A stretch of 64,000 nucleotides of DNA from a virus. Below, piece by piece: positions 1,793 to 18,019 of the stretch. A model generated the notes under the pieces. It was not told where the DNA came from. It ran no database searches and saw nothing but the letters and a program-made list of their open reading frames with translations. The stretch covers positions 1-64,000 of the IMG/VR virus record IMGVR_UViG_3300008216_000009; one strand, given 5' to 3'. Each line of letters opens with the position of its first letter. Position 1 is the first letter of the stretch. The translations under genes were made by a program, and so were the position numbers.

Positions 1793-2091
1793 GTCGTACT
1801 CCTTCTCTGTATCTCTATTTGAACTATCTACAGTATATAGGAAGACGACACACTTGTCAAGCACGTCTACACCGATACATGTGATACGAGCTAACTCAAG
1901 TTTACTGCTATGGATATTTCAAGTCAAGGATTTGTCTGGGTCCTGTCACCTGGGTCGAGGTCCCGGGGCGGACGTGGACCTCGAAGCTCACGTAAGGGAA
2001 AGATGTTGTGGGACCTGGGAGGGATCCCGGGCAATAAAAAACCCGGAACCATAAAGATTCCGGGTTTCATTGGACCTGGGCTAGGGGCTAG

Positions 2092-2289
2092 TTAATCGTC
2101 ATCTGCCGGGTCGTCATCACTTGAGATGTTGTCCAGGGTGATTCCATCATTTGAATGGACGCTAACCCTTCCGTCATCGCTAACTGGAGCAAGGTACTGT
2201 TGAATCAGTTCCTCTGCTACAGCATAGGACTCAGCCTCTATCTCAAGGTCTACTTGCATGGATACGTCTGCTCTGTACGTGTAAGCCAT
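2092..2289 (-). CDS. Small acidic hypothetical protein (EIEAES motif)
   Basis: Coupled ORF; resembles 19365-19598. Confidence 0.65.
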   Translation of the reverse strand: MAYTYRADVSMQVDLEIEAESYAVAEELIQQYLAPVSDDGRVSVHSNDGITLDNISSDDDPADDD

Positions 2290-2750
2290 TACTTTATCCT
2301 TTCGTTGAGTATGTCGATCTTGTCGCCGTGTGATTTGAGTAGGTAAGACTTCACGGTGTCGTCGTACTTTCGCTTCATTACGTGGTACTCACCGTCCTCA
2401 TAGACTTCGTCTGGAATACGAAAGAGTGTCTGAGTCTTGCATTTTCGCTTTAGGTCACGCTGCTCTTGGACATCGTCCACTAGCTCACCTATGTACGAAT
2501 CCAAGTCATGGTTAAGTTGTTTGTTTTCATACGACCAAGTGTGTGTTGCTGCTTCAGTTTCCATTTTCTGAAGTAAGTCCCTGTTCCAGCGACCATCCTT
2601 GTCTCGAACATCTACATCATTAGCACCACCATGACCATTGTTCTTGGCCTCTCCGACCTTTTTGCCATCAATGTAGACTGAGGCATTGAAGGCAATAGTC
2701 TCTTCGGATAGACCTGCGTAAATCTTGACGTTCTTTAGAGTGATGTCCAT
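2289..2750 (-). CDS. Conserved phage hypothetical protein
   Basis: SEET.AF.A.VYIDGK.VG.A.N.GHGG motif; translationally coupled. Confidence 0.75.
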   Translation of the reverse strand: MDITLKNVKIYAGLSEETIAFNASVYIDGKKVGEAKNNGHGGANDVDVRDKDGRWNRDLLQKMETEAATHTWSYENKQLNHDLDSYIGELVDDVQEQRDLKRKCKTQTLFRIPDEVYEDGEYHVMKRKYDDTVKSYLLKSHGDKIDILNERIK

Positions 2751-3169
2751 TATGCTGTCACCTTTTCCTTTTCTCGGCTCTTCTCGAACATCTCGGCAAT
2801 TTGGATATTGCGGTTGATGTTCTCTACAGTAAACTTGTAGCTTTTACCTGTTCGGGTGTTATCGGCACTGACAGGATACTTCCGCCTTCTCAGGTTAAAG
2901 CCAGTGACTTTGAACTCCTCTCCGTTGGAGTTGAATACATGGCCCACATTGAACTTTGCCCCTATGTACTCGGCATCCCTGTTAGCGACCTTCTCCGCCA
3001 TAGCAGGAACATCTACCTTGAACGAGAGGGTAGCGGTATGACCTGCGTACCTGCCAGTGGCATATGATGCCGTCAAGCCGTACTTGTTCAAGGTACGCTG
3101 GATCACTACTTCTAGTTCATCACTGAGTATCCTGCACTCTGCTTTACCTATACTTTTGATCTTAGCCAT
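2750..3169 (-). CDS. Hypothetical protein
   Basis: Coupled ORF with GAGGTG RBS. Confidence 0.7.
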   Translation of the reverse strand: MAKIKSIGKAECRILSDELEVVIQRTLNKYGLTASYATGRYAGHTATLSFKVDVPAMAEKVANRDAEYIGAKFNVGHVFNSNGEEFKVTGFNLRRRKYPVSADNTRTGKSYKFTVENINRNIQIAEMFEKSREKEKVTA

Positions 3170-3372
3170 TAGTTCACCTCACGGTTGTATTCTAATATGT
3201 CGTTGCGTAACTCTTGCATTGTTGGCATACCCTCTCCACCACCTGACCACGTTTCATTTATTAGGTCAGTTAGTTTGGTCAAGGCATCGGGATATTTATT
3301 GCCGTCACTAGCATGGTCAACTAACCACTTCTCGACTGCGACCTCAGATACTTGAATTGCGATTGTACTCAT
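3169..3372 (-). CDS. Hypothetical protein
   Basis: Coupled ORF with GAGGTG RBS. Confidence 0.65.
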   Translation of the reverse strand: MSTIAIQVSEVAVEKWLVDHASDGNKYPDALTKLTDLINETWSGGGEGMPTMQELRNDILEYNREVN

Positions 3373-3476
3373 TTAGTTCACCTCTTCCTCGCATGAGGGA
3401 CACGGACTATCAGTGGTATCTAAAAAATACTCCCCATGATCTTCGCATTCTCCGATTCCTATTCCTTTATTAGCCA

Positions 3477-3692
3477 TTAGTTCACCTCTATCTTGGACGG
3501 CTCTAGAATCTCCACAGGGAAGTTAAAGAGTTCATCCTTTAGGTACTGCATATCTGCTATGTCGCCACTCTCTCTGTGGACACCTTCCACCTTGCTCAAC
3601 TCTTTGATGCCGTAGTGCAAGGCACGGGCCATCATCAGCTTCCCTCGTGTACTCGATAAGAACCTTACAGCGTCTTCGGTTTCAATTGCCAT
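3477..3692 (-). CDS. Hypothetical protein
   Basis: ATG after AGGAG, downstream of promoter 3718-3746. Confidence 0.65.
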   Translation of the reverse strand: MAIETEDAVRFLSSTRGKLMMARALHYGIKELSKVEGVHRESGDIADMQYLKDELFNFPVEILEPSKIEVN

Positions 3693-3735
3693 AACCACTC
3701 CTTTTCTATTTGTTAGTATTATACCACCAGTTAGA

Positions 3736-3945
3736 TTATTTGACAAGCACATTAGTTGGATAGGCTTCTACTTCATCTGCATCAAGGTCATATGGTCTTA
3801 CTTCACAAACCTCGCAAATGTTTGAGTCATAAGCATTAGCCCTGCGCCCATAATTTAGGTCATTAGCAATCAGGTAGGTGCAGACTACGCACTCCCTCAC
3901 TTCGTATTGTTCCCTTACCGCATCAGTTACCATTTGTATCCACAT
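3736..3945 (-). CDS. Small CxxC-pair protein
   Basis: Two CxxC motifs; coupled ORF. Confidence 0.55.
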   Translation of the reverse strand: MWIQMVTDAVREQYEVRECVVCTYLIANDLNYGRRANAYDSNICEVCEVRPYDLDADEVEAYPTNVLVK

Positions 3946-4193
3946 TAGGCTCCCCTTGCTTTTTTCTGCTCTGGAGTCTCACGCTCTTTGCATGATTTCA
4001 AGTCCTCGCAGAACGCTATCAGCATCCCTATGTCAGTAGGCTCCAAGTCAAAAACTCGCTTGTAGGCTCTGTCCCCCAACATACCGCTTGCTCGTGCTGC
4101 CAGCATGGCGAATCGTACATCGGGATGTATTGGGATGGAAATCTTCTCTCCGGTGTCCAACCTCTCTTGTAGCGTCTTTGTGTCTGTACTCAT
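3945..4193 (-). CDS. Hypothetical protein
   Basis: ATG after AAGGAG, downstream of promoter 4222-4250. Confidence 0.65.
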   Translation of the reverse strand: MSTDTKTLQERLDTGEKISIPIHPDVRFAMLAARASGMLGDRAYKRVFDLEPTDIGMLIAFCEDLKSCKERETPEQKKARGA

Positions 4194-4416
4194 TGACTCT
4201 CCTTCTCTATTTGATATCTTAATTATATATGATAACACGCAACGTGTCAAGCACCACCCTGGATTTTCCTGGATCCGGTCCGCACTCGCAGCAGTGGACC
4301 AGGTCCCCCGGGGAGACGTAAGGGAAAGATGTCCGGGCTACCCAGGTCCGCACGAGACAAAAAAAATCCCCCGGAAACTCCCAGGGGATTTTACTTGAAT
4401 AGAATTGATGTTTACA

Positions 4417-5211
4417 TCAATCTATCTTGCGTTCGATGGCAGCGTTGGCTTTTCGATGTGCTCCATGAGTAGACAAACCTATAACCATGTTACGTTCCTT
4501 GAGTAGATTCAAGTCGGCGCATTTCATGCACATCGCACACGTTACAGCTTTATTGAAGTTGTTAGGGCATGGCAGCACTTTGACAGAATCACGATCATGA
4601 ACCTTGCGAGACATATGCTTTTCATACGTCCACTCGCATGCATAGCCTAGTGCCCTAGCACGAGCTATTTGTTCGGCGGATTCGCAACTTGCCAGAACAT
4701 TAGCACCATTCCAAGCTGATTCTGGTACTGGAATAGGCTCGTTCCAAGCATGAGTATAAGTATAAGCTTGAGAACCATTAGGTGAACGAGATTCATAACG
4801 ATTCATAGCGTCGCCTATGATACCAGCAGCAATGCTATTACTAGCATCTCCAACTACATGTACTCGCAGTTTGCGATCAGCGGGCAATTCGTCAATTTTG
4901 CGAGCTTCGATCTCAGCGAATTGAATCTGGATGTGCATCCGAGTTTCGATGTCGTCCACATCTCCGAATATCTCAGGGTAGAACGGGCACGACGTAGGAC
5001 ACGTTAGTTGTGGTGCATAGGTGGCGTTCATCACGCCGACCTTGCCATTGGCAGAATCGATTACAGTCGTTACGGCAGTCTCATCGACTTCGACAAGTGC
5101 CCGCTGATTGATGCGATTCGTGGTGTGTTGAACCATGCCAAAATTGGTATAGCATCCGTTGTTAGTCAACACCTGACCAATCCAGTTGGTAGCCTTTTCT
5201 TTAGTAGTCAA
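4417..5211 (-). CDS. Cys-rich phage protein, GP88-like putative metal/Fe-S binder
   Basis: S.NGK.G..ATY..TCP.SCP, RVHVVGD, YTYTH, CP...TCxxCxxC and THG motifs; sole gene of its module. Confidence 0.6.
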   Translation of the reverse strand: MTTKEKATNWIGQVLTNNGCYTNFGMVQHTTNRINQRALVEVDETAVTTVIDSANGKVGVMNATYAPQLTCPTSCPFYPEIFGDVDDIETRMHIQIQFAEIEARKIDELPADRKLRVHVVGDASNSIAAGIIGDAMNRYESRSPNGSQAYTYTHAWNEPIPVPESAWNGANVLASCESAEQIARARALGYACEWTYEKHMSRKVHDRDSVKVLPCPNNFNKAVTCAMCMKCADLNLLKERNMVIGLSTHGAHRKANAAIERKID

Positions 5212-5391
5212 TTGAAATCCCCCTACTGATTTAATCTACCCTGTAAGTATACACTAAAATACGCAACCTGTCAAGCACAAGTTTGGCCTGGATATTATTT
5301 TACTCTGGGGAGGGGGTAAGGGAAAGATATAGAAGCGGCCCAGGATCCACAAGACAAAAAAATCCCCGGTCCATAAAGAACCGGGGAGTTT

Positions 5392-5474
5392 GGCTTCATG
5401 ACTTACAACGTCTTATGGTGTACGTCACATAGAGTAGGTGATGTGTTGGCTACTCACGGCATTTGCATGAAGCC
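5392..5474 (-). ncRNA. Candidate three-way-junction RNA in module trailer
   Basis: Perfect 9-bp stem GGCTTCATG/CATGAAGCC enclosing GAGTAG/CTACTC and GACGT/ACGTT hairpins. Confidence 0.4.
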
Positions 5475-5478
5475 TCGT

Positions 5479-5676
5479 TCATAGACCAATCCCAGGGTAG
5501 TTCATGTTACCCTTTTTGACCTCGGCCCGTTCTGTTTTAACAGCTTCGTAATAGTTCGGGTTTGTTCGTTCCTCATCATCACACTTTGGGCATATCAAGT
5601 CAGTGTTGAAGAAACTCATTGTGTGGACATAAGATGCTATTCCGCACTTGTGGCAGTTACCGTTCCAATCACGCAT
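5479..5676 (-). CDS. Small zinc-finger protein
   Basis: CxxC...MSFFNTDLICxxC. Confidence 0.7.
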   Translation of the reverse strand: MRDWNGNCHKCGIASYVHTMSFFNTDLICPKCDDEERTNPNYYEAVKTERAEVKKGNMNYPGIGL

Positions 5677-5929
5677 TAGTTATGGACTCCCTTGCTTGTT
5701 CTAGATTTAGTGTACATAGCCACGCATCTCCCATAGCTTGACGTTGTTCATCATCACTTAGTTTGCTGAACACTTCGTGGAGATGGCGTTTGGCATGATT
5801 GATTTCATCATTGGCCCTTGAGCTATCTCCGAGGGAGATAAGCTCTTGTGCGTCCGATAGAGTCGTGAACGCTTGCCAGAGTTCCCCTGCCATTGTTTGG
5901 TCGATTGCGGTCATGCCTGGAATCTCCAT
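5669..5929 (-). CDS. Hypothetical protein
   Basis: Coupled ORF with RBS. Confidence 0.65.
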   Translation of the reverse strand: MEIPGMTAIDQTMAGELWQAFTTLSDAQELISLGDSSRANDEINHAKRHLHEVFSKLSDDEQRQAMGDAWLCTLNLEQARESITNA

Positions 5930-6168
5930 TAGTTGCTCTCCCTAGATATTGTTGGTGGTGTAACGCTATGATTTGTTGTTGACAAGAACATGGCTAGACA
6001 TGCACTACACTGTTGGCCCCTATCGGTATTTATTAGGTTGGTAACCTCGTCCTCGGTGTCAGCTATGACATAGCCTATGCCCATTTCATCACCACAAGTG
6101 GCACACTCCATAACGTCATCGTCTTGATCCGACCTGTACTGCCAGATGCTGTAAGAAAATATGTTCAT
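5929..6168 (-). CDS. Small CxxC-pair protein
   Basis: ATG overlaps the upstream TGA; two CxxC motifs. Confidence 0.6.
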   Translation of the reverse strand: MNIFSYSIWQYRSDQDDDVMECATCGDEMGIGYVIADTEDEVTNLINTDRGQQCSACLAMFLSTTNHSVTPPTISRESN

Positions 6169-6389
6169 CAGTTGCTCCCGCATCCACAATCGCACTGGAT
6201 TCCAATAGAGGGTTCCTCTTTGGCAGTGCATAAGTGGTCATAAGCCATGTCGCCAGCAGTAACCATAAAGGCTACTTGTGCGTCCCAGCTATCGATTCCT
6301 TCATCGTAAGCAACTAGAGCACAATCGTCACAAATGTCGAGTTTCCTGTTCTTGTTGATCACGCAGTTGATTAGCCCTTGGGTGGTCAT
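6168..6389 (-). CDS. Small Cys-rich protein
   Basis: CxxC..HLC..CDCGC; downstream of promoter 6427-6455. Confidence 0.65.
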   Translation of the reverse strand: MTTQGLINCVINKNRKLDICDDCALVAYDEGIDSWDAQVAFMVTAGDMAYDHLCTAKEEPSIGIQCDCGCGSN

Positions 6390-6460
6390 CGTCCTTGCTC
6401 CCCCTTTTAATTTCCTAACTATTAGTATTATACCAAACTTAACGACAAGTGTCAAGCACC

Positions 6461-6610
6461 TCAAGCCGAAGTAGCTTGAGCACTTTTAATCACTCCAGCC
6501 TTTTCCAGTATGATACGTTGGAGTACCTTAGTTCCTACTCCACTCACTCGCATCCGCCTTCGGGCGTTCCGCTTGTTGTCTCGCCTGTCCCACTTATTGT
6601 TCTGGCCCAT
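6461..6610 (-). CDS. Small basic protein
   Basis: GGAGG RBS; promoter 6638-6666. Confidence 0.55.
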   Translation of the reverse strand: MGQNNKWDRRDNKRNARRRMRVSGVGTKVLQRIILEKAGVIKSAQATSA

Positions 6611-6913
6611 GTCGTTCCTCCAATTCGATATACTATAAGTATACAGGAAAACATGACATCTGTCAAGCACTTCGACCCGGCTCGACCCGGTTTATCTTAA
6701 ATGGATCCTGAAAGGACCACCTGGGAGGTAAGGGAAAGATGTCCTCCGGCGGAATGGACCTATTCCGGGCACAGAAAAGCCCCACCCAGGACGATGGCCC
6801 AGGTGGGGCGTTGGAGAGCCTTTTCAACTCTTGCTCAGGAGCCAGGAGGACTGACAGAGCAGTTTCATGTCACGGGAGTGACCAGCCCCCGACTCATGCT
6901 CAGGAGAGGGATA

Positions 6914-7321
6914 TTAGCTTATAGTCACCTTCACGTTGTTTTCCTTTACTGCCATCAGCTTGACGTACTCGGCAATGGACTTGTCCGCAAGAATGAGGCG
7001 GTGGTAGCGTTTCGGTACTGCCACCAGTACCTCTTTGAGTGTGACCAGCTTGCCGTTCGGGATGAAGTTCTCGGCCATGACTTTTGCCTTCATGCCGTTT
7101 CGTATGTATTCGCCACCGAGGTCTTTGACTTCGTCCAGCAGTGCCTCTTTAAGTACCTTCAAATCGGCATCTAGAGCCTTCTTAGCCTCTTGCATTGCGA
7201 CTACCTTGTCGAACACTTCATCGATGCTCTGAGGCTCTCTGGAGCGTACTGTAGTGGAATCCAGAGTTCCCGTGGTCACCTTGATTTGGGTCTTGCCGTT
7301 CTTGTTAGCCATTTCTGTCAT
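6914..7321 (-). CDS. Hypothetical coiled-coil protein
   Basis: AGGAG RBS, own promoter. Confidence 0.7.
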   Translation of the reverse strand: MTEMANKNGKTQIKVTTGTLDSTTVRSREPQSIDEVFDKVVAMQEAKKALDADLKVLKEALLDEVKDLGGEYIRNGMKAKVMAENFIPNGKLVTLKEVLVAVPKRYHRLILADKSIAEYVKLMAVKENNVKVTIS

Positions 7322-7391
7322 TTCTCCTTTTCTTGTTTTTACCTTCTAGAGATAGTATATCAGGTTACTGAACACCTGTCAAGCACATCCT

Positions 7392-7607
7392 TTATCCTAC
7401 TGGAACTGCCCCAGAGGCGTTCGGAGCGGCCTCTTTGAGTGCCTTCACTGATAGGACGAATTTTGCCAGGGTGTCCAGTTCCTCGGAGGATGCGTTCAGA
7501 ATCTTGTTGTAGCCTACTTTGCCGACTACGTCCCCAGCACGGACTCCCGTTACGAACGCCATCAGGTCTGGTTTCTCTATCCTCAGTTCAATCGCTTGTA
7601 GGGTCAT
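7392..7607 (-). CDS. Hypothetical protein
   Basis: AGGAGG RBS, own promoter. Confidence 0.65.
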   Translation of the reverse strand: MTLQAIELRIEKPDLMAFVTGVRAGDVVGKVGYNKILNASSEELDTLAKFVLSVKALKEAAPNASGAVPVG

Positions 7608-7830
7608 GTCGTCCTCCTTCTTTGGTTTACTCTCTAAGTATACTCCTATTCTTAACACCTGTCAAGCACATTCTGAGATGAATATCCTGGGTCTTGGACC
7701 CCGGTATTGCCCGGGAGGTAAGGAAAAGATGTCCCGGGTAAGAGATCCGGCTCCTGGGAACTGGGAATAAAAAAAGGGATGGGAAATCCCATCCCCCGTT
7801 CGGGGCACTTAAATTAAAATGGAGAGCGAG

Positions 7831-8271
7831 CTACTTCGTGTGTAGCAGAGAGAGGTAAATACGTGGAATATTCTCAATCAATAGATGTTCTACATCTGCC
7901 CGGAAATTCTCTAGGTTCTCTTTTTCTTCCTCATAATGTTCCAGGTTGTTCTTTTTCTTGATTTGTAGGGGTTTGCCATCCCTCATAGGGGTAATAAAAG
8001 TTTTATCAAACTGTTCATCCCATCTGTAAGAGGTGTAGCCATAGCGAGGAAGCTCTTCCGTTATCAGTTCTTGTACCAGGCTAATAGTGCTTTTCCACGC
8101 TTTCTCGTCTCTCCTGGTTTCGTAATGGAACTGACTAGGAACTAACTGCCAAAGTCTAGTTCCTAGAGATACTAATGTATTGTGGAATTCAATGATTACG
8201 GGTTTCAATATTGTCCTCCTGAACATATCGGTCAGTAATGCAGTAGGAGGGTACAGGGCTAGGTTGGTCAT
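7831..8271 (-). CDS. Hypothetical protein
   Basis: ATGA overlap with the upstream gene. Confidence 0.6.
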   Translation of the reverse strand: MTNLALYPPTALLTDMFRRTILKPVIIEFHNTLVSLGTRLWQLVPSQFHYETRRDEKAWKSTISLVQELITEELPRYGYTSYRWDEQFDKTFITPMRDGKPLQIKKKNNLEHYEEEKENLENFRADVEHLLIENIPRIYLSLLHTK

Positions 8272-8756
8272 GCTGCTACTCCATTTAGGGGGCACGTTTC
8301 CATAATCGCTGACATAGCTTCTGAGATGTTAGTCAAATCTATAGTCCTCATTAGGTTCCATGATTGGCCTTCATGTTTATAAACTATGAGGGTATCATCG
8401 GATTCATTAAAGACATAGGCCCATTCAATAAAGACATTGTCTTTGTCCTCTACTGAGTCTACGGTCCATTCCTCCTCGTTCCTGTCGCCGTGGCAGTAGC
8501 ACTGTGGTTTGTCCTTGTTAGGGGAGTTAAAGTCTTCTACGAATCCAATTTCCTGCGTCCAATCACAGGACGCTATGTTAGACCAGCCCGCAGTATGGTC
8601 GTCCAATAATACTTTTTTACCCTCAGTTAGTCCGAAGTGATTCAAAGCTCTTAGAATACCTATACCGACCCCGGACGGGTATCCGTCCCAGTGACTGTAC
8701 CTTCCTACAAACGCATCGCCTTCAGTCTGTCTTGCAATCGTAGCCCTGGTGCTCAT
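8268..8756 (-). CDS. Conserved phage protein (MSTR...YxHWDGYP family)
   Basis: MSTRATI...YSHWDGYPSGVG...EWAYVF motifs. Confidence 0.75.
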   Translation of the reverse strand: MSTRATIARQTEGDAFVGRYSHWDGYPSGVGIGILRALNHFGLTEGKKVLLDDHTAGWSNIASCDWTQEIGFVEDFNSPNKDKPQCYCHGDRNEEEWTVDSVEDKDNVFIEWAYVFNESDDTLIVYKHEGQSWNLMRTIDLTNISEAMSAIMETCPLNGVAA

Positions 8757-8976
8757 GTCTCCTCCTCTTATCAGTATACTAGTAGTATACCGTTAAGATA
8801 GGGGTATGTCAAGCACATATAGGGCCGTAAATGCTGGAACTGGTCCAGCGGGTGTGTAGTTTACGGGGATTGGTAAGGAAAAGATATAGCCGCCGGGGTC
8901 CTTTTCCGGGCAAAGAAAAACCCCGGAATCTTGATTTACCAGGATTCCGGGGCTTTATTTGTACCTAAGTTGCTCT

Positions 8977-9630
8977 TTATGCTATGAGCCACTCCCTTCT
9001 GTCAGTTGCTATGGGTCTGACTGAGCGAACAAAGCTGTAAGCGGTGTCCAAACCCATACTCTTGTTCCTGACCAAGTACCATACGGTAGCCAAGACTGAG
9101 CGTTCCATGCCCATCGAGCAGTTGACCACTACCTTTTTCTCAGTAGCCATCGCCATCTCCATCGTATTCACAATGGACTCCAAGGTCTGCAAGACCTTGC
9201 TGGACTTCTTGATGCCCCATGTAGCATTGCTAGGTTCGATAGGCATCTTGACCGTAGTCTCGATGTCCAACTCACCTGCTACATTGATGGTGAAGTGCCC
9301 TTGCTTGATAGCCTCTTCGGCTCCCTCGGCTCCAGTAACGCCCAAGTTGGGCAGTACCCACGAAATCTCATGTGGGTCGAAATTGTCTGGAACTTCGTGC
9401 CCGACCATACTCTTCAGAACCTTGATTCTATCTCTGGAATCGTTGGAGTAGTCGTGCCGGGTTGGAGTTACGTACTTCTCATCCTTCCACCATTGGGTGG
9501 TAGATGCAGTAGCTGAGTTATCTATCACGTTGACATCAATCTCTTCCCACTCGCCATCTACGGCTTCATCTGCATAGATTAAGCCATTCTCAGTCAGAAC
9601 TTCGTTCGCATCCCATTTTCCGTTTTCCAC
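8977..9630 (-). CDS. Dual-specificity/protein-tyrosine phosphatase family protein
   Basis: CX5R loop VVVNCSMGMERS; C-terminal AYSFVRSVRP; paralog of 26731-27267. Confidence 0.8.
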   Translation of the reverse strand: MENGKWDANEVLTENGLIYADEAVDGEWEEIDVNVIDNSATASTTQWWKDEKYVTPTRHDYSNDSRDRIKVLKSMVGHEVPDNFDPHEISWVLPNLGVTGAEGAEEAIKQGHFTINVAGELDIETTVKMPIEPSNATWGIKKSSKVLQTLESIVNTMEMAMATEKKVVVNCSMGMERSVLATVWYLVRNKSMGLDTAYSFVRSVRPIATDRREWLIA

Positions 9631-10064: not shown

Positions 10065-10242
10065 GACAGTCTCCTATCCAAATCCTTTACAGATAGTATA
10101 CAGGAAAAACAGTATCGTGTCAAGCACATATTCCCGGTAAAGGACCCCCTGGGGACCCGGGAGGGGTAAGGAAAAGATGTGCCGGGACCCTGGAGGATCC
10201 CAGGCAAAGAAAAAGCCCGGTATTAACCGGGCCAGGTGTGTG

Positions 10243-10330
10243 TGGTGGGGAGTGCAGGATTCGCACCTGCGTATCTCAAACGAGAGCCAGTTTTACAGAC
10301 TGGTGCTTTTGTCTACTCAGCCAACTCCCC
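10243..10330 (-). tRNA. tRNA-Tyr (GTA)
   Basis: Acceptor GGGGAGT/ACTCCCC-A-CCA, anticodon arm CCAGT-CTGTAAA-ACTGG, long variable arm, T arm GCAGG-TGCGAAT-CCTGC. Confidence 0.92.
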
Positions 10331-10341: not shown

Positions 10342-10548
10342 TCATCTGGCCTGATAGCCATAGATGTATGCCCATACCCAATCGTACATCGCTCGTTTGG
10401 ATAACCGAGGGCTAACCTCCACTGAGCCGTTTTCCTTAACTAGCCTATAGCCACCGTAAGCCTTGTCATAGCTGTAGTCACGAGTGTTGTTAGTCGCTCG
10501 ATTTAGAGCCGACAGTGCATCGTCTAGGTTTGATTTAAGTATTCTCAT
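10342..10548 (-). CDS. Hypothetical protein
   Basis: AYGGYRL motif; coupled ORF. Confidence 0.7.
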   Translation of the reverse strand: MRILKSNLDDALSALNRATNNTRDYSYDKAYGGYRLVKENGSVEVSPRLSKRAMYDWVWAYIYGYQAR

Positions 10549-10895: not shown

Positions 10896-10967
10896 CTAGT
10901 CCCCTCTCTTAGTTAGTCTACACCTCTAAGTATAAAGCATTAGCCTACATCTGTCAAGTAAATTCCG

Positions 10968-10997
10968 TAGCTAACGAAACCAATCTGAAAGCAATTT
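10968..10997. promoter_or_regulatory. 30-bp promoter-upstream element (other copies at 12412-12441 and 16559-16588)
   Basis: TAGCT(A/G)A..AAA(C/G)CAAT(C/A)T(G/C)AAAGCAATTT, starting about 10 bp upstream of the -35 box in three modules. Confidence 0.7.
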
Positions 10998-11167
10998 TAC
11001 GTCTATCTGGAATATAGTTACTGGGAATTGCGGAGGCTGTGGCAATATGCCTTCGAGGTGCTCTTGGTCTGCGAGCTAAGGACCCGGAGGGGTAAGGAAA
11101 AGATGTTCCCCAGGTCCAGAAGTCCCAGACACAAAAAAAGCCCCAGCTTTTGCCGGGACTTGGGTTT

Positions 11168-11247
11168 AGAAGTAGAAGTCTGTGGTTTCTGTGGGCCACT
11201 CCCCTAGGTCATGCTAGGTAGGGGTCATTCCCCCGACTTTTACTTCT
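11168..11247 (-). ncRNA. Four-way-junction RNA motif, copy 1 (module trailer)
   Basis: AAGUC-GGGG[GAAUGA]CCCC-UA-CCUAG[CAUGAC]CUAGG-GGA-GUGG[10 nt]CCAC-A-GACUU; covaries with copies 2 and 3. Confidence 0.75.
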
Positions 11248-11264
11248 GTGGGGCTATCTGGGGC

Positions 11265-11507
11265 TTACATGGCCCCCAGCCCTTCGGGGCCGCAGCAGCC
11301 ACAGGCGGGAGCATCTTCGCACATCCCGTTGCCTTGGATGGCCCTGCCGTTGGCCCAACGGACTCCCCCGTCGAACTTGTCGTGGCAGTCCATCCCGTAG
11401 ACCCGCCCCCGTCCGTACCAGCGACCCTTAGAGCCGACAGGGAGCGATGCTCCACATTGGGTGTCGGCGCACTTGCCAGCGAACTTGAGAGTGATAGTTT
11501 TTGCCAT
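11265..11507 (-). CDS. Small Cys-rich phage protein (CEDAPxCGCC family)
   Basis: KFAGKC...CG...CEDAPACGCCG. Confidence 0.7.
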   Translation of the reverse strand: MAKTITLKFAGKCADTQCGASLPVGSKGRWYGRGRVYGMDCHDKFDGGVRWANGRAIQGNGMCEDAPACGCCGPEGLGAM

Positions 11508-11718
11508 GAGGTGTCCCCTTTTCAATTTTGGTATACTCACAGTATACACTATTATCAGACATCTGTCAAGTGCCTATTTGAAACGAAGGACCAGTCCGAG
11601 GCGGAGGACCTGGTACCCCGGGAGAGGTAAGGAAAAGATGTGGGATCTCTCCAGGACCAGCGGGCACAAAAAAAGCCCGGGATTTCCCGGGCATAAGTTT
11701 CTGACGGACCGGTCCAGA

Positions 11719-12063
11719 TCAGAATGGTTTAGGTGATACGTCTATCCTTCGATATGAATCTATTAGCTTCTGGACTTGTGTGATATCGGCTTCAGTCCAC
11801 TCACTTTCAGTCTCCATAAACTCTCGGAATTTAGGAGCATCTGGAAACTTCTGATCAACATATTGGATTCTATCTGCCAGATAGGCATCCCACTTGTCAT
11901 CGTCAAAGTCCTCGGCACTACGTTCTGTCATGGCTTCTATTGTATCGTTGCATGGCCCACACATATAACAGTCCATGTAGTCACGACCACACGGAATTCG
12001 ATTCACCCATCCATCGTATTGGGTATCGGCTCCGCATTCAAAACAAAGTGTTGTGTCAATCAT
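11719..12063 (-). CDS. CxxC-pair protein
   Basis: CFECG...VNRIP...YMCGPC. Confidence 0.65.
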   Translation of the reverse strand: MIDTTLCFECGADTQYDGWVNRIPCGRDYMDCYMCGPCNDTIEAMTERSAEDFDDDKWDAYLADRIQYVDQKFPDAPKFREFMETESEWTEADITQVQKLIDSYRRIDVSPKPF

Positions 12064-12064
12064 T

Positions 12065-12259
12065 TTAGTTAGTCCTTTCAGTTCTGATCTGATCCAGCCG
12101 TTCAGCCATATCCCGAACCAGTTTCCGACCCTCCTCCTTGCCTTGTTCGCCCTCACCGTTCTCGATGAGCATGATGGCGACCTTTGCCTGAAATGCCCAG
12201 TCTGGGGCGATATTGACGGTGGTGACTATGTTGCCACTCCCAGTGTAGATGTCGGTCAT
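12065..12259 (-). CDS. Hypothetical protein
   Basis: AGGAG RBS. Confidence 0.65.
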   Translation of the reverse strand: MTDIYTGSGNIVTTVNIAPDWAFQAKVAIMLIENGEGEQGKEEGRKLVRDMAERLDQIRTERTN

Positions 12260-12297
12260 CTTGTCTCCTTTTGCTTATGGGTTGATGGTTGATTTGC

Positions 12298-12367
12298 GTG
12301 GAGTCCGTGGTGTCCGTTTGTCCACTCCCCTCGGTCATGCGAGGTAGGGGTTCTTCCCTAACTCCAC
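12298..12367 (-). ncRNA. Four-way-junction RNA motif, copy 2 (starts at about +1 of the promoter)
   Basis: GUGGAGUU-AGGG[AAGAA]CCCC-UA-CCUCG[CAUGAC]CGAGG-GGA-GUGG[11 nt]CCAC-G-GACUCCAC. Confidence 0.75.
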
Positions 12368-12575
12368 CTTCTAAGGATACACTAAAACGTAACATCTGTC
12401 AAGTATTTCTATAGCTGAGAAAAGCAATATCAAAGCAATTTGGACGGTCCGGTCCAGGACCCCGTTCCCTGGACCCCCACGGCAGGAGGTATAGGTAAGG
12501 AAAAGATGTACCGGGGGTCCCGGCTTCGCCAGGGCAAAAAAATTCCCCTCTTAAAAGAGGGGATGTATTCTACAT

Positions 12576-13258
12576 GCCTCATATGTTTTTTAGGCTCCCA
12601 GAGGCATTCTGGGGCGGTCATGGCGATGGGTATCAGCCGTGCTGCTCTGCGAGGCGACCCCAGAGTTTGTCAGCCCGCCGAACAGATTTCTCAGCTTCGC
12701 TAACTAGCTCACGGTACTTACCTAGCTCTGCCTGCCACCGCCGTAGCTGCTGCTTCTCGAATCGGTACACATCGTAAGCAGCATCGACGACTGCGTCGGC
12801 GTGAGGGAAGTTCGCAGCGCAACCTTCGCACTCGTCCCCGTACCAACCGCCGTCAGTTGGGCAATTAGCCTCGCCGTATTCGTTGACAACGAGCTTCTCA
12901 CCGCAGCCGTAGGGGCAATCGAGAGTAGCTATGTTTACTTTCTCGTTAGTAGTTGTGACCATTTGGTTTTTTTCCTTCCCCAGAAGCCCGACGACTGAGT
13001 GACCCCTGTAAATTACGACTACCTATAGGATACACTAAAATAGGTGCTATGTCAAGTAGGTCGGAAAACTGAGACTCCAGATATTCCTGGCTTTGTATAG
13101 CCTGGGTAGTTCCCGGTGAGCCAGGTCGTAAGGAAAAGATGTACTGGGGTCCGGCTCCGCCGGGGCAAAGAAAAACCCCTCTTTTGAGGGGTAGTGGTAG
13201 TTTTATAGTATGCCTCATATGTTTTTTAGGCTCTCAGAGGCGTTCTGAGGCGGTTATG
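12576..13258 (+). repeat. About 47-bp trailer repeat shared by adjacent modules (12576-12622 and 13211-13258)
   Basis: TGCCTCATATGTTTTTTAGGCTC(C/T)CAGAGGC(A/G)TTCTG(G/A)GGCGGT(C/T)ATG. Confidence 0.85.
12633..12962 (-). CDS. Cys-rich hypothetical protein
   Basis: CPYGC, CP and CEGC motifs; sole gene of its module. Confidence 0.7.
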   Translation of the reverse strand: MVTTTNEKVNIATLDCPYGCGEKLVVNEYGEANCPTDGGWYGDECEGCAANFPHADAVVDAAYDVYRFEKQQLRRWQAELGKYRELVSEAEKSVRRADKLWGRLAEQHG

Positions 13259-13273
13259 CCACCCTACCCTACC

Positions 13274-13495
13274 TTAGGCTGGAGTGACGACGTGCCACAC
13301 CTTACCAGCGTAGGGACCGACATCCGCAACCTCTAATCCAGCGGCTGACCCGTCGGCTACTCCCATGGTGGACTCGCAAGCTGTGCAGATAGTCCATGAC
13401 GGGCTAACTACGATGGTTGCAGGGTTCTTGCACCCTTGTGCAGTCCACGCTTTGGAGTCATCTATGTGACTCATGTGCTCGCATTGGCAGTTCAT
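13274..13495 (-). CDS. Small Cys/His-rich protein
   Basis: CQCEH..H...C...CTAC; sole gene of its module. Confidence 0.7.
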   Translation of the reverse strand: MNCQCEHMSHIDDSKAWTAQGCKNPATIVVSPSWTICTACESTMGVADGSAAGLEVADVGPYAGKVWHVVTPA

Positions 13496-13811
13496 TTGGT
13501 TTTTGTCCTTTCCCAGAGGGCGAGAGAGTGCCTCTGTAATATCCGACTACCTATAGTATAAAGGAAAACACGCAATATGTCAAGTGTCTGCCTCGAATAC
13601 TCCTGGGAGGATCCTAGTCCTCCCGGGAAGGGTAAGGAAAAGATATGCCAGGTCCCCCAGGAGCCTCGAAGCTCCCAGCAAAAAAAATCCCGGTAAAATA
13701 CCGGGATTTCTTCAACAGTTAGGGCTGTCTATTTATTTAATTGTTTTGTTCCATGCCTTAGTTAGCTCACGTTTCAGTTCAGATACCTTGCATTTAATTA
13801 CGAATTGTCGC

Positions 13812-14072
13812 TTATGCATATGCTGCCTCTGGATTGAATATACTTTCCCATTTACCCATCATGTCACTCCAACGCCCTCGGACTGCATTCTCAGTGTCAT
13901 GGACTTCGTAGTCTACGAACCCTTGGTCATCCTCTAGGATGATGCCATAGAGGCCGTCAGTGATGATTAGGGCTGACCAGAATCCCTCTACCTGACAGGA
14001 GCCATACTCTTCCTCTGCAAAGCCGTTCATTGCTACGTCGTTTAGCTTTTCCGAAATTGCGTCGTACTTCAT
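13812..14072 (-). CDS. Hypothetical protein
   Basis: ATGA overlap with the upstream gene. Confidence 0.65.
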   Translation of the reverse strand: MKYDAISEKLNDVAMNGFAEEEYGSCQVEGFWSALIITDGLYGIILEDDQGFVDYEVHDTENAVRGRWSDMMGKWESIFNPEAAYA

Positions 14073-14287
14073 TCTAGTTCCCTTTCGTTGCTGAGTTCTC
14101 CACACACACATTCTGTGATTCTAGGGATGAATTTCAAGCTACATTCGCATATGTTCAACTTGGTGTCTTCTACGAAAGACTTACACTCAGGACACTGGAA
14201 TAGCCTACGGTCTTCGCATTCCGTGTAGTGCTTCTCGTCCACCCAAGGTGGGTCTACTGGTAGGTCAACTACGATGTCTTGGTTCAT
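14069..14287 (-). CDS. Small Cys-rich protein
   Basis: AGGAG RBS; CPEC, CEC and CVC motifs. Confidence 0.6.
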   Translation of the reverse strand: MNQDIVVDLPVDPPWVDEKHYTECEDRRLFQCPECKSFVEDTKLNICECSLKFIPRITECVCGELSNERELE

Positions 14288-14462
14288 TTTTATGCTCCTA
14301 TGTAATCGCTGGCTGAGCAATCCCAGCATATGGTCAGAGTCTCGTCTAGGTTCGTCCCCGTACATTCTGGGCATTCTCGATTGGCCCGCATTAGTTGTTT
14401 CTTGAGTTTAGCTACTAACTTCATTGTGTCGTTTACTAGGCTATTTCTTTGTATGTTATTCA

Positions 14463-14612
14463 TCAGTTTCTCACCTTACTTGTTTTGATCTTGATGTCCT
14501 TGATAGCATCTTGATCACGGATGACATCGTTGATGTCGATGTCGCTCTCACTGACCTTGCCATCGTACTCCATCTCGTAGATTACCGTGACCTTGACCTT
14601 TGTGTTTTCCAT
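14463..14612 (-). CDS. 49-aa protein, paralog of 16302-16487 (not in ORF track)
   Basis: MENTKVKVTVIYEMEYDGKVSESDIDINDVIRD...; GGGAGG RBS; promoter 14648-14676. Confidence 0.7.
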   Translation of the reverse strand: MENTKVKVTVIYEMEYDGKVSESDIDINDVIRDQDAIKDIKIKTSKVRN

Positions 14613-14826
14613 GGATTCGCCCTCCCTTGTGTTTGGTCTACCCTCTGATTATACTCTCATTCTTTACATGTGTCAAGTGTTTATTTGACCAATTTTACTT
14701 GGATTTGGACCCCGTCCCGGTTCCTGGTAGAGCTTAGAGGGTAAGGAAAAGATATGTCCCGGGCAGGAGGATTCCAGGGCAAAAAAAATCCCGGCTCGAA
14801 GCCGGGATAGGGGGGGATTACGAGGA

Positions 14827-15201
14827 TTACTCGTAGTGGGGCCGATAGGCGGGGTATTCTTCGCCAGGATGGTCTTCTACCCTGATTTCATAGCTACCAG
14901 ATGTTACCAACTCGCCTGGGAATTCTGTTGGGACATCCATCGTATCCAGATAGTTTACGCCGTTAGCGTCGTGTGTGTAGCTGTAGGCATATTCTGATTT
15001 GTTGGAATATTTGGCACTCAGAATAGATTCCCAGTGTCCCGCAGGACATAGGTCGCCGTGGACATACTCGGACTCAGACTCGACACAGGTGGTCGCCTTG
15101 CTCACAACTGGAGTACCACATGTGTAGTACCAGCCACCCTCCTCTGCACCGCCGTAGCGACGTTCGGTAGAATATACATTTACGAAAACTGTGTTGCTCA
15201 T
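14827..15201 (-). CDS. Conserved phage protein (YGGxEEGGWYY family)
   Basis: VNVY...RRYGGAEEGGWYY...RPHYE. Confidence 0.75.
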   Translation of the reverse strand: MSNTVFVNVYSTERRYGGAEEGGWYYTCGTPVVSKATTCVESESEYVHGDLCPAGHWESILSAKYSNKSEYAYSYTHDANGVNYLDTMDVPTEFPGELVTSGSYEIRVEDHPGEEYPAYRPHYE

Positions 15202-15254
15202 TTTATCTCCCTGTGTTTTGGTTCTGGGCAGTAGCTCGGATGTGACATTGGACT

Positions 15255-15333
15255 GGGTTGAGAGCCTCTAGGGTCTGATGGCTAGTCCCCTGAGTTATGT
15301 CAGGTAGGGGGCACTCCCCCGACTCCCCAGCCC
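15255..15333 (-). ncRNA. Four-way-junction RNA motif, copy 3 (module leader)
   Basis: GGAGUC-GGGGG[AGUG]CCCCC-UA-CCUGA[CAUAAC]UCAGG-GGA-CUAG[10 nt]CUAG-A-GGCUCU. Confidence 0.75.
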
Positions 15334-15516
15334 CATCCTCACTACATTAGTAGTATACCACGATTCCTTACATGTGTCAAGTCTTTTGGTCCCGGGTTTT
15401 TAACTTGAGTCCTGGGCCAGGAGGAACTTGCAGTAAATGCAATATGGGTGTAAGGGAAAGCTGTACTGGATCCTTTGAGTTTTTACCCGGGTAAAAAGCC
15501 TTACCAGGGTTCCTCT

Positions 15517-15783
15517 CTATTTTAGATACTCCCTCACAATGGCTTTTAGGTCTACCATTCCTCGCTTTGGCTCCCCTAAGATGAAGTCTAGGCACTTTTG
15601 GATATTCTGGAGGGACATGCTGCCGTGAGTGCAGAAACGCTTTATTCGTTCAATTCCTTCGACTACTGTTACGAATTGACCGATTGCCACGATTTCGTAA
15701 TTCCCTACTTGTAGACTATGATTCCAGTCTCCATCTCGGATTTCGTTCAGGCTTAGAGGATTTCCGTTCTTTGTGATTGCCAT
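15517..15783 (-). CDS. Hypothetical protein
   Basis: GAGGAG RBS. Confidence 0.65.
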   Translation of the reverse strand: MAITKNGNPLSLNEIRDGDWNHSLQVGNYEIVAIGQFVTVVEGIERIKRFCTHGSMSLQNIQKCLDFILGEPKRGMVDLKAIVREYLK

Positions 15784-16301
15784 AGTTTTTCTCCTCTTAG
15801 TTACTTTTCTTATCTACTCTCATTATCTATGACGACGCCCAGAAGTCGGCCAGTACCTACCCAGTATCCATCCAGATGTGAGGCAGGTTTGGCCCAGAGA
15901 TGGCCCAGTTCCTGGAGGTATAGTGCACGATGGGGTAAGGGAAAGCTGTGTTCCCTCCCAGGGACCGAAATCCGGGCACAAAAAAGCCCTGACCTCATAG
16001 CTTCGCCTTTTGTAGGCTCCACGGTTCGTCAGGGCTGACTCCGTTAGTACGGAGTTTCGGTAACTGCCCCTGCAGTGTATGTATATTTAATGGTAGTCAG
16101 ACTTTAACTTCGCATTTCAATACTCCTCAGTGCTGCTGTCGTCATTCTGATTTGTCCTTCCGTTTTCCCCATCCTGCCAGTTCCCGTTGTTTAGCTACTT
16201 CGGGATCTGAGGTAGCAAACCTGCGTATTCGTTCTGTTACTTCACGCTGCCTGATTTCCTCTTTGGCCTGTTCGATGGACATGTATGTAATTGTTGGCAC
16301 A

Positions 16302-16487
16302 TTAGCTCCTTACAGTCTTAAATTCTACGTCATGTATAGAGACGATATTGCGGGGGTCTCGAACAATATCATTGAAGTCCACGATGTCGCTGACGTTGTC
16401 CTTATCTATTTTCTCATCATAGACCAATTCGTACTCCACGACCACTTTGACTTTGGTTCCTGTCTGCTTCTTGAGTAGCCCTAGCAT
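16302..16487 (-). CDS. Small protein, paralog of 14463-14612
   Basis: TKVKVVVEYELVYDEKI...VDFNDIVRD. Confidence 0.7.
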   Translation of the reverse strand: MLGLLKKQTGTKVKVVVEYELVYDEKIDKDNVSDIVDFNDIVRDPRNIVSIHDVEFKTVRS

Positions 16488-16790
16488 TGCGTCACTCCTT
16501 CTTAATTGGTTCTACAGTCATTGTACACCTATTTCCTACATGTGTCAAGCATTGCCTATAGCTAAGAAAACCAATCTCAAAGCAATTTCCTACTCCCCCT
16601 ACCCGACCTGGGAGAACCCGTGAATCGGTCCCTCCGCCCGGGAGGGGTAAGGGAAAGCTGTGGTGGCCCAGGTGTTCGTGCCAGGGGCTGTTTTGGGGTT
16701 TGTCCGGGGCTATGCCACAAAAGTGGCACAAAAAAACCCCAGGCAGAAATGCCTGGGGCTTGTGCGGTGTTTGCTGTATTTTAAGTGTAC

Positions 16791-16967
16791 TTAGGCACTC
16801 CGTTTCCTCTTGTACTCTCGATACTCTGAATTGCTGAGTCCGTTGATGTACTCTCGATGTACCTTGAGTAGCAACTTAAAGTCGTGGAGTAGTTCCTCTC
16901 TTGGGTTCAATTCTCCATCGTTGAAATATCCCATTGCGTCGCCTAGTGTTAGTTCGTCTTCACGCAT
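16791..16967 (-). CDS. Hypothetical protein
   Basis: GGAG RBS, coupled. Confidence 0.55.
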   Translation of the reverse strand: MREDELTLGDAMGYFNDGELNPREELLHDFKLLLKVHREYINGLSNSEYREYKRKRSA

Positions 16968-17193
16968 TTCCGTTTCTCCGTTTCTGCCAGTAGGTGTCAA
17001 AGATTTCTCCCTGCTCTACCCGTCTGCCCAATGTTGTCTCAAGTTTAATCCATTCCCTGAGAATCTCATTCTCCCGCTTACGGGATTCTGATGGAGATGC
17101 TTCGCCGTCCATGTGTAGATTCTCTGGCTCCAATCGGATTACCAGATTGAAAAACTTACTGAATAGCTCGTTAGGTATGGTCGTCTTTATCAT
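16960..17193 (-). CDS. Conserved phage protein (LEPENLHMDGE motif)
   Basis: Motif recurrent in phage small proteins. Confidence 0.7.
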   Translation of the reverse strand: MIKTTIPNELFSKFFNLVIRLEPENLHMDGEASPSESRKRENEILREWIKLETTLGRRVEQGEIFDTYWQKRRNGNA

Positions 17194-17194
17194 T

Positions 17195-17380
17195 TTAGTT
17201 TCTCACCATCCGTTCAATTCCTTTAATCATCCGACTATGTTTTCTCATCCTAGCCGGAGAAACATGGTTCCAGTTGCAATCCCCACAGCATAATCCTTCT
17301 GCAACTGGAGATGCATCGTAGCCCCATGAACCCTTAACTGAGTGATTTGCTATGGGATTCTTGCAGATAACGCATTGCAT
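17195..17380 (-). CDS. Small zinc-finger protein
   Basis: CVIC...GYDASPV...CCGDCN..V.PAR. Confidence 0.7.
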   Translation of the reverse strand: MQCVICKNPIANHSVKGSWGYDASPVAEGLCCGDCNWNHVSPARMRKHSRMIKGIERMVRN

Positions 17381-17381
17381 G

Positions 17382-17666
17382 TCAGTCTCTCACCCTTCTC
17401 TCCCGCTGGCTCCACAGGCCCGTGTATACCTCTTTAATCATCTTTGCAGCCTCGTCCTGATTCGACCCGTAGACCACTACTCGCCCCAACTCATCGACAC
17501 TGAGCCTCTCAACGCCGTCTGCGGGGCATTCTAGGATGGTTACCCACTTGCCAGAGAGTGTGGCGGGATAGTTGTCGGCAGCGTCCAGTTCCGACTCTCC
17601 CATTGACCAGTAGCCCTCGTCAGACCTTATCACGAACAATTTCTCCGCTGTAGCCGATGTCTTCAA
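17382..17666 (-). CDS. Hypothetical protein
   Basis: TTG start after AAGGAG; promoter 17706-17734. Confidence 0.6.
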   Translation of the reverse strand: MKTSATAEKLFVIRSDEGYWSMGESELDAADNYPATLSGKWVTILECPADGVERLSVDELGRVVVYGSNQDEAAKMIKEVYTGLWSQRERRVRD

Positions 17667-18019
17667 AGCAGTCTCCTTCGCCGTCAGGGTTGTGTTACAT
17701 CTCTAATTGTACACTATAACAAGACACGTGTCAAGCACAATTCAAGGGCAATTTTACCTGTATTTGGAAATTGGTCAGTCTCCCCTGCCCGGATACCCCC
17801 GTGGACCCTGGGTGGCCCGGGGGCGGTAAGGGAAAGCTGTAGTGGCCCCTGGGCCTTCCCCGCTCCACCCTCGCTCCATCGTTTGTGGCAATGCCACACC
17901 TTTTTCGTAGCTGTTGCCCTGGGTACGCCCCACCTATGCCTCATCTGTGTCGGAGCTATATAAAGTTTTATATAAAAAAATCCCGGCCCCTTTTGGACTG
18001 GGATTCTCCCCTTTTATCC

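Follow-up and report, generated by a model that had tools for sequence, protein, structure and literature searches.

Organization of the early region

We analysed a stretch of 64,000 nucleotides (nt) of viral DNA, hereafter the window, i.e. the first 64 kb of the 95,606-bp phage record IMGVR_UViG_3300008216_000009 (GC content 44.6 %). Our focus was on the junctions between the dense, small minus-strand genes of positions 1-18 kb, and on the CCNGG and GGWCC words that surround a polar 16-nt box within these junctions. The words proved to be extremely enriched, to occupy preferred positions relative to the box and to be oriented toward it on both flanks, and we tentatively suggest that they may be contacted by a protein complex that assembles on the box. 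The initial annotation had placed them in gene-free DNA, a description that has to be abandoned: the region is densely coding on the minus strand, and the words are found only in terminator-to-promoter junctions of about 80-180 nt.

Sequences L136 and L137 complete the window (positions 1-64000) to the whole genome (G000). Pfam and PHROG scans revealed a capsid protein of SU10 type (PF17236), a tape measure and a tail tube. Replication and recombination genes encode DnaB, a DnaG-type primase, a family A DNA polymerase, RecA, RuvC and ribonucleotide reductase, and the phage also encodes an endonuclease VII-like protein, a PD-(D/E)XK nuclease and an SNase.

The box, GGTAAGGRAAAGMTRT, is present in 18 copies, all on the plus strand between positions 249 and 17,840, and nowhere else in the genome. 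Along transcription, i.e. on the minus strand, each junction is composed of an intrinsic terminator hairpin with its T-run, a spacer of about 26 nt carrying two or three words, the box, a second spacer of 40-130 nt carrying two to five words, and a consensus sigma70-type promoter, GTGCTTGACA-N17-TATAmT. Twenty minus-strand promoters were recorded, each matching 10-12 of the 12 consensus positions, together with hairpin/T-run terminators at the junctions. As the distance from box to T-run is fixed (25-30 nt) while that from box to promoter varies from 39 to 132 nt, the words were assigned to the terminator-plus-box unit. Array promoters without a terminator (hexamers at 6451, 7378 and 9683) have neither box nor words. 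A second terminator-like site was observed in three junctions, where a short hairpin made of right-spacer words is followed by the T-rich start of the box (ACATCTTTT); these sites lie at 10203-10182, 12524-12510 and 13660-13648 on the minus strand, just downstream of the real terminator.

Word enrichment around the box

Within 70 nt on either side of the 18 boxes, CCNGG reaches 43.7 per kb as compared with 2.4 elsewhere (18-fold denser) and GGWCC 15.5 per kb as compared with 0.46 (34-fold denser). The 18 junctions amount to 2041 nt, i.e. 2.1 % of the genome, and contain 26 % of all CCNGG and 43 % of all GGWCC. Against 2000 dinucleotide-preserving shuffles, 110 CCNGG were observed around the boxes for 32.8 ± 5.4 expected (z = 14) and 39 GGWCC for 11.8 ± 3.2 (z = 8.5). 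When only strict spacers were considered (i.e. from the -35 hexamer to the box and from the box to the A-run, terminators excluded), the figures were 84 versus 27.0 ± 4.7 for CCNGG (z = 12.2) and 36 versus 10.1 ± 2.9 for GGWCC (z = 8.9). The spacers have a GC content of 0.59 for 0.446 genome-wide, and the enrichment stays once GC and GG/CC content are controlled for by these shuffles, under which GGSCC, GGNGG, CCNCC, GCNGC and CGNCG showed no enrichment around the boxes. In an unbiased ranking of 5-mers, CCCGG, CCGGG, CCTGG, GGACC, CCAGG and GGTCC filled six of the seven top places, and no other 100-nt interval with at least five words was found anywhere in the 95.6-kb genome.

The three counts that the initial annotation had made by hand were exact, i.e. 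7 CCNGG, 3 GGWCC and 1 GGATCC in 10131-10205, 7, 4 and 1 in 4256-4350, and 5 CCNGG and 5 GGWCC in 12441-12535. For the complete series, words were counted from the -35 hexamer to the A-run, i.e. over left spacer, box and right spacer in plus-strand coordinates. Junction 1 (189..294, box 249-264) holds 5 CCNGG and 3 GGWCC in 106 nt at a GC content of 0.61, junction 2 (1929..2035, box 1991-2006) holds 6 and 4, and junction 3 (4252..4358, box 4317-4332) 7 and 4. Junction 4 (5276..5355, box 5315-5330) is word-poor, with 2 CCNGG and no GGWCC, and is followed by junction 5 (6668..6772, box 6727-6742; 4 and 2) and junction 6 (7667..7768, box 7717-7732; 7 and 1), where CCCGGGA and TCCCGGG directly flank the box and a 10-bp stem surrounds it in the fold. 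Junction 7 (8814..8915, box 8872-8887; 2 and 2) is word-poor on the left; junction 8 (10125..10209, box 10165-10180), with a tRNA-Tyr gene just past its terminator, has 7 CCNGG and 3 GGWCC in 85 nt; and junction 9 (10959..11132, box 11091-11106; 2 and 2) has a long left spacer with few words. The next ones are junction 10 (11571..11667, box 11626-11641; 4 and 3), junction 11 (12404..12535, box 12494-12509; 5 and 5), junction 12 (13057..13170, box 13127-13142; 5 and 1), junction 13 (13585..13679, box 13631-13646; 5 and 1) and junction 14 (14678..14780, box 14740-14755; 5 and 1). The series is completed by junction 15 (15382..15492, box 15449-15464; 6 and 1), junction 16 (15874..15979, box 15934-15949; 3 and 1), junction 17 (16550..16729, box 16646-16661; 6 and 1) and junction 18 (17736..17870, box 17825-17840; 5 and 1).

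Position and polarity of the words

Word positions were compared by aligning 34 word-rich modules from five sources on the box, offsets being given from the box start. On the left, CCNGG starts at -10, -9 or -7 in 29 cases and at -20 to -18 in 20, and also at about -30 and about -40; on the right, it starts at +16 in 10 cases, at +23 to +25 in 15 and at +32 to +37 in 25. GGWCC peaks at -13 and at +19 to +21, i.e. 3 nt outside the proximal CCNGG on each side, and often overlaps CCNGG by 3 nt, as GGWCCNGG on the left and CCNGGWCC on the right (composites such as GGACCCTGG and CCAGGGTCC, respectively). In the consensus of the window alone, the box is immediately preceded by cccgGgaGg and the A-run by CCNGG. 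The earlier statement that the spacers do not align consequently holds at the level of letters and fails at the level of words, whose positions relative to the box are conserved.

The words are also oriented. On the plus strand of the window, the ratio of CCTGG to CCAGG is 18/4 left of the box and 4/13 right of it (p = 4e-4), and independent metagenome relatives gave 21/3 and 3/12 (p = 4e-5); spacer positions outside words showed no A/T skew. In the pooled data, with the self-complementary CCCGGG masked, CCYGG points toward the box in 96 cases versus 22 (p = 3e-12) and GGACC in 46 versus 26 (p = 0.02). On both flanks, the words thus read CCYGG and GGACC 5'-to-3' toward the box, and the polarity flips across it. 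No longer motif was found hidden around each CCNGG, the flanks of the word carrying at most 0.3 bit, so that the 5-mer itself is taken to be the unit; the modal distance between neighbouring CCNGG words is 7-11 nt.

Coding, folding and topology of the junctions

Translation of the words as Pro-Gly (CCN GGN) was considered and rejected. One minus-strand frame is open in 18 of the 18 window junctions, but in only 12, 12 and 10 of 16 junctions in relatives; the words start in all three codon phases, and the start codon is missing in two junctions. The junctions are therefore not explained by coding.

A hairpin or cruciform presenting the box was likewise discarded, as fold energies, pairing of adjacent words and junction-specific pairing were all unsupportive. 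A single-strand stem, in RNA or single-stranded DNA, in which the left and right arms pair and leave the box in a large loop, would account for the complementarity of the two arms, whose mean duplex energy is -25.8 for -21.9 ± 0.65 in dinucleotide shuffles (z = -5.9) and -23.5 in direct sense. Folds with the box in the loop were obtained at junctions 7717, 6727, 4317 and 11626, and terminator-like scores were obtained for three right spacers that run into the T-rich box. However, whole-junction folds are not significantly different in energy from shuffles (z from +1.8 to -2.3, mean about -0.5), the right arm of a junction pairs with its left arm no better than do right arms of other junctions (p = 0.11), and complementarity between neighbouring words is rare (2 of 22 and 4 of 19). 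The generic complementarity of left and right arms is explained by their shared inverted-repeat vocabulary, and compensatory pairing is absent. Moreover, an element lying downstream of an intrinsic terminator and upstream of a promoter should be poorly transcribed, and Rfam returned no match for the junctions, tRNA-Tyr being the only hit above threshold. We therefore regard such a stem as quite improbable. For a folded site of attC type, compensatory pairing gave no support and the ORF (open reading frame) scans detected no integrase.

The location of the element, just after the terminators of consensus-promoter units, i.e. where positive supercoils accumulate, raises the question of topological relief, with each junction being a strong gyrase site, or another site of this kind, placed after very strongly transcribed units, in the manner of BIME-2 (bacterial interspersed mosaic element) or of the Mu strong gyrase site. 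The E. coli gyrase motif is long, symmetric and degenerate, its arms containing GC-rich blocks of GG/CC type, and the enzyme is concentrated at BIMEs and on the downstream side of active operons (PMC6379681). GGGCCC, a block of the E. coli consensus, was found 0 times here for 12 expected, and other GG/CC words might substitute for it. The left arms nevertheless have no significant 10-11-bp GC periodicity (power at 10.5-11 nt, z = 1.0-1.2 versus shuffles), the aligned GC profile is a plateau rather than an oscillation, and the element spans about 90 bp instead of 130 bp, with the proviso that the motif is that of E. coli and may not be that of the host. A gyrase role appears very improbable on these grounds.

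Distribution and turnover of the words among relatives

Related junctions were collected from twelve sources with arrays, giving 69 junctions; all these relatives are uncultured marine viruses, many of them from deep water. The phage of the window was itself recorded in at least 14 public runs of marine viromes, none of the runs listed being of RNA. A megablast against the INPHARED phage collection retrieved no near-identical or similar phages, and the capsid protein gave only distant archaeal-virus matches. In IMG/VR, the exact 16-mer box had 23 single matches, apparently due to chance, and the phosphatase search yielded no match.

G1, a close relative with a complete record, has a genome of 141 kb and a capsid protein 83 % identical to that of the window phage. 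It carries 23 boxes with the promoter and terminator layout of the window, but with only 8-9 nt between box and T-run and with a much lower number of words. In its spacers, CCWGG (z = 4.3) and GGWCC (z = 4.9) are still enriched and CCSGG is absent. The 26-nt right spacer of the window lineage would correspond to an insertion relative to G1, or to a deletion in G1. Homologues in G1 were found for just 9 of the early ORFs of the window, while the scaffold is conserved. A second phage, G2 (capsid protein 49 % identical), has neither box nor array. Two side observations concern these genomes: in the G1 junctions (L133, G1 55.8-72 kb), GGAGG/GGNGG runs are enriched (29 versus 15.2 expected, z = 4.8), and other 10-mers are repeated elsewhere, TGATTCATTC 17 times in G1 and AAAATTTAGAAAAA-like sequences 13-17 times in G2, which may be stage-specific promoters.

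Metagenome contigs of relatives, retrieved via a cargo phosphatase, fell into two classes. L150, L152, L155 and L158 are word-saturated like the window (CCNGG z = 5.6 and GGWCC z = 8.4 in L150; 9.5 and 4.3, respectively, in L152, L155 and L158 pooled). L153, L154, L156, L157 and L159 are word-poor, without any CCSGG in their spacers, and in L153, L154 and L157 CCSGG is absent from the entire contig.

L150 has the gene order of window positions 0-11.6 kb, with proteins about 72 % identical, and thus allowed orthologous junctions to be compared. Terminators are identical at about 70 % of aligned columns, whereas left spacers are essentially unalignable (about 47 %), and yet the left spacers of L150 and of the window have equal density and polarity of words. 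Individual sites therefore turn over while cluster density is maintained; combined with the extreme enrichment, this recurrence in relatives supports the initial proposal of a maintained word cluster.

The same comparison bears on whether the words have any function. They could be a by-product without function, all junctions going back to a single ancestor in which an inverted repeat (GGACCCCTGG ... CCAGGGGTCC) surrounded the box, with 5-nt slippage and GC-biased or very-short-patch-like repair regenerating words in often recombining spacers. Tandem 5-mers (GGACCGGTCC, GGTCCGGTCC and GGACCGGACC) do resemble slippage products, the GC content of the spacers exceeds that of the genome, perfect 10-bp inverted repeats persist in some relatives (e.g. 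the L150 junction at 5030), and word-poor lineages function without words. Such an origin is nonetheless difficult to reconcile with orthologous left spacers that have kept word density and polarity beyond the loss of alignment, with the lack of enrichment of GGSCC, GGNGG and CCNCC although GG and CC are abundant, and with the 34-fold density of GGWCC at the junctions, given that this word is 2.5-fold under-represented elsewhere in the genome. We thus consider it distinctly unlikely. If it were the whole explanation, the array would stand as a warning that extreme word enrichment can arise without restriction-linked function.

Restriction avoidance

Outside the junctions, the window genome avoids palindromes to an extreme degree: CGCG is found 0 times for 66 expected, GGTACC 0 for 22, TGGCCA 0 for 14 and GGGCCC 0 for 12, and CAGCTG, GAGCTC, CTCGAG, GTCGAC, CGATCG, GACGTC, CGTACG and TGCGCA are also absent, which points to a host range rich in restriction systems. 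Phages with related capsid proteins differ by lineage in what they avoid. CCWGG is missing from G2 (96 expected), where 5 GGSCC were counted (68 expected), G1 has 11 CCSGG (about 72 expected) and no CCCGGG, and GGGCCC, CTCGAG and GTCGAC are absent from the window phage, G1 and G2 alike. In the window genome outside the array, CCWGG (117 versus 100 expected) and CCSGG (73 versus 78) are not avoided, and GGWCC (40 versus 100) is the sole under-represented word among the three.

The words match common specificities (CCNGG, CCWGG, CCSGG and GGWCC) in a phage group under very strong, lineage-specific restriction pressure, and the initial annotation accordingly had proposed methylation-readable sites, decoys or deliberate cut sites. 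We now disfavour these restriction-linked readings and hold a restriction-modification role of the words to be highly improbable. Their strand polarity and positional grammar are invisible to enzymes reading palindromes; CCWGG and CCSGG are not avoided outside the array and so give no sign of host targeting; and the lineage that avoids CCSGG has purged it from its spacers too, while the one free to use CCSGG fills them with it, which is the opposite of what decoys or cut sites predict. Sites packed this closely would, besides, trigger two-site enzymes of the EcoRII type instead of conferring protection, which also counts against decoys. Finally, Pfam and PHROG scans of about 120 ORFs detected no methyltransferase or restriction gene, and no integrase, HU/IHF or phage RNA polymerase either. 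Judging from these word counts, restriction pressure probably shapes the vocabulary of the words, without the words being its target.

Possible cassette exchange at the junctions

Contigs of relatives from other marine metagenomes show cassette-sized skips whose joints lie at the box or in the right spacer, i.e. 4346->5356 (which drops the DUF7227 cassette), 11613->12494, 12515->15975 and 17194->17382. The skipped parts are replaced by 9-37 other letters, again with CCNGG words. These alignments indicate that cassettes are gained and lost at the junctions.

The words could be recombination arms on either side of a nick or break made at the box, acting there as oriented hotspots of Chi type or as phased microhomology and promoting RecA-dependent exchange of whole cassettes in the style of PeSL (promoter-early stem-loop) shuffling. 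An enzyme that starts at the box and moves away in either direction would come upon all words 3' side first, and approach from the 3' side is the geometry that Chi needs. Besides the whole-cassette skips, few cargo genes are common to the window phage and G1 despite their conserved scaffold, the DUF7227 gene is found at 82-84 % identity in unrelated phage contexts, and the phage has its own RecA, RuvC and nucleases (endonuclease VII-like, PD-(D/E)XK and SNase). On the other hand, two word families with an orientation of only 64-81 % are too loose for a hotspot of Chi type, and we know of no box-specific nuclease. The joints, taken from contigs at 80 % likeness, may mark the end of similarity between paralogous junctions, and word-poor relatives have variable cargo too. 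We therefore find a recombinational role unlikely, albeit one to be kept in view. The initial idea of recombination between modules retains some weight, since the joints of gained or lost cassettes lie at the box or in the right spacer, but nothing shows that the words are cut.

A more specific scheme, which we rate as a long shot, is integrase-free cassette exchange in which the box would be a programmed nick or break and the words, reached 3' side first by an enzyme resecting away from the box, would be Chi-type hotspots loading phage RecA, permitting swaps of terminator-gene-promoter cassettes between junctions and between co-infecting relatives with an integron-like outcome. Should the words be recombination arms, they would offer a mechanistic handle on the shuffling of ORFan cassettes in abundant deep-ocean phages.

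A putative boundary complex

We favour, with a probability of roughly 40 %, the reading that the words are reiterated low-information contact sites of a putative protein complex on the box, at terminator/promoter boundaries resembling PeSLs. The polar core, the oriented and positioned words, their blank flanks, the 7-11-bp steps and the turnover of sites are the reasons for proposing protein contacts, and a boundary complex at terminator/promoter junctions is favoured because the box is tied to the T-run and terminator-less promoters have neither box nor words. Among the four functions put forward by the initial annotation (methylation-readable sites, decoys, cut sites feeding recombination and low-specificity binding sites around the box), the last is the best fit to the preferred positions, uninformative flanks and polarity flip.

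Under this proposal, the polar box would be the centre of a composite element about 90 bp long and of two-fold (dyad) symmetry, in which the words would form the degenerate arms. A DNA-binding protein or oligomer, encoded by the phage or by its host, would assemble over the box via the words and form a boundary complex at the terminator/promoter junction of each early cassette, where it might act as a transcriptional insulator, as a termination back-up or as a regulator of the early promoter. The vocabulary of the words would be restricted to what the restriction avoidance of each lineage tolerates. Several zinc-finger proteins in the early cargo are candidate DNA binders. Binding and function are both inferred here from sequence patterns.

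Several observations weigh against this proposal. Five of the 18 modules are word-poor (boxes at 5315, 8872, 11091 and 15934, with 4 words each, and at 6727, with 6). In G1 and five metagenome contigs, the box, the promoter and the terminator are all retained although words are scarce or absent, so that whatever role the box has does not require them. No ribbon-helix-helix, HU/IHF or other classical repeat-binding domain was detected in the early ORFs scanned. Lastly, polarity and position preferences could have been inherited from one ancestral inverted repeat, without selection.

The nearest described systems differ from the junctions in instructive ways. PeSL cassettes of T4-like phages (Arbiol, Comeau & Krisch 2010, PMC2839356; Comeau et al. 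2014, PMC4122927) share with them the composite junctions of terminator and consensus sigma70 promoter, repeated between small ORFan genes in a hyperplastic early region, as well as a conserved scaffold, a cargo varying between relatives and indels at cassette borders. Described PeSLs, however, consist of promoter and stem-loop only, whereas an invariant polar 16-nt box and dyad-oriented CCNGG/GGWCC arms are present here; what is new relative to them is the box and the word arrays between terminator and promoter. Furthermore, the present phage is not T4-like (SU10-type capsid, tape measure, tail tube, family A DNA polymerase, 95.6 kb).

In E. coli, BIME-1 (RIB-RIP) elements consist of a REP (repetitive extragenic palindrome), an IHF site and an inverted REP at the 3' ends of transcription units. 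The junctions are similarly found at the 3' ends of transcription units, with GC-rich, near-palindromic inverted units around a central asymmetric site (BIME/REP background in PMC3333891 and PMC2817692). REP units differ in being hairpin palindromes of about 35 nt with conserved sequence, instead of 5-nt words without hairpin signal. The box matches the E. coli IHF consensus only loosely.

Short-repeat arrays bound cooperatively by small dimeric repressors include the omega heptads of pSM19035, the 4-bp ParG boxes of TP228 and the ParR iterons flanking the parC promoter. Words of 4-7 bp, uninformative flanks, steps of 7-11 bp and direct plus inverted arrangement around a core site are common to these operator or centromere arrays and to the junctions. 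The junctions differ from them by forming 18 dispersed copies at terminator/promoter boundaries, not one centromere or operator, and no cognate ribbon-helix-helix or ParB-like gene was detected in the ORFs scanned. Strong gyrase sites (Mu strong gyrase site, E. coli 130-bp motif, PMC6379681) are also long, degenerate, symmetric, GG/CC-rich and downstream of heavily transcribed units, but the 10.75-bp GC periodicity that defines them was not detected here.

If the words are contact sites of a boundary complex, they would add a new layer to the wiring of host-takeover genes in lytic phages, with a terminator, an insulator-like platform and a consensus promoter in every cassette. This platform would consist of 5-nt words, with the restriction enzymes that a lineage encounters deciding which of them may be used, so that defence pressure would reshape a regulatory sequence without destroying it. 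Such elements could also supply compact, portable insulator parts for synthetic biology.

Early cargo and other genes

Unusual host-interaction candidates were noted in the early cargo (window 1-29000, minus strand). They include two DSPc phosphatases (8977-9630 and 26731-27267), a DnaJ-domain protein (18433-18897) and a dCMP deaminase, all on the minus strand. The set of ORFs scanned also comprised an HSP20 (457-912), a SET-domain protein, a zinc finger of DksA/TraR type, and treble-clef and BED zinc fingers.

The tRNA-Tyr gene (anticodon GTA; 10243-10330, minus strand) is cargo lying directly after the terminator of the junction with the box at 10165, and this arrangement is kept in metagenome contigs L152 and L156. 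The DUF7227 cargo gene (window 4417-5211, minus strand) is also found at L138:3333-4115 and L139:4560-5312, with 82-84 % amino acid identity. The marine phage contigs bearing it lack both the box and the consensus promoter cassette and do not avoid CGCG; tried as a route to relatives, the gene led to unrelated phages without junctions, and it appears to be a mobile cargo gene.

In the structural region, three giant ORFs, at 50263-57459, 57460-62031 and L136:10311-15791 (2398, 1523 and 1826 amino acids, respectively), are essentially without family match.

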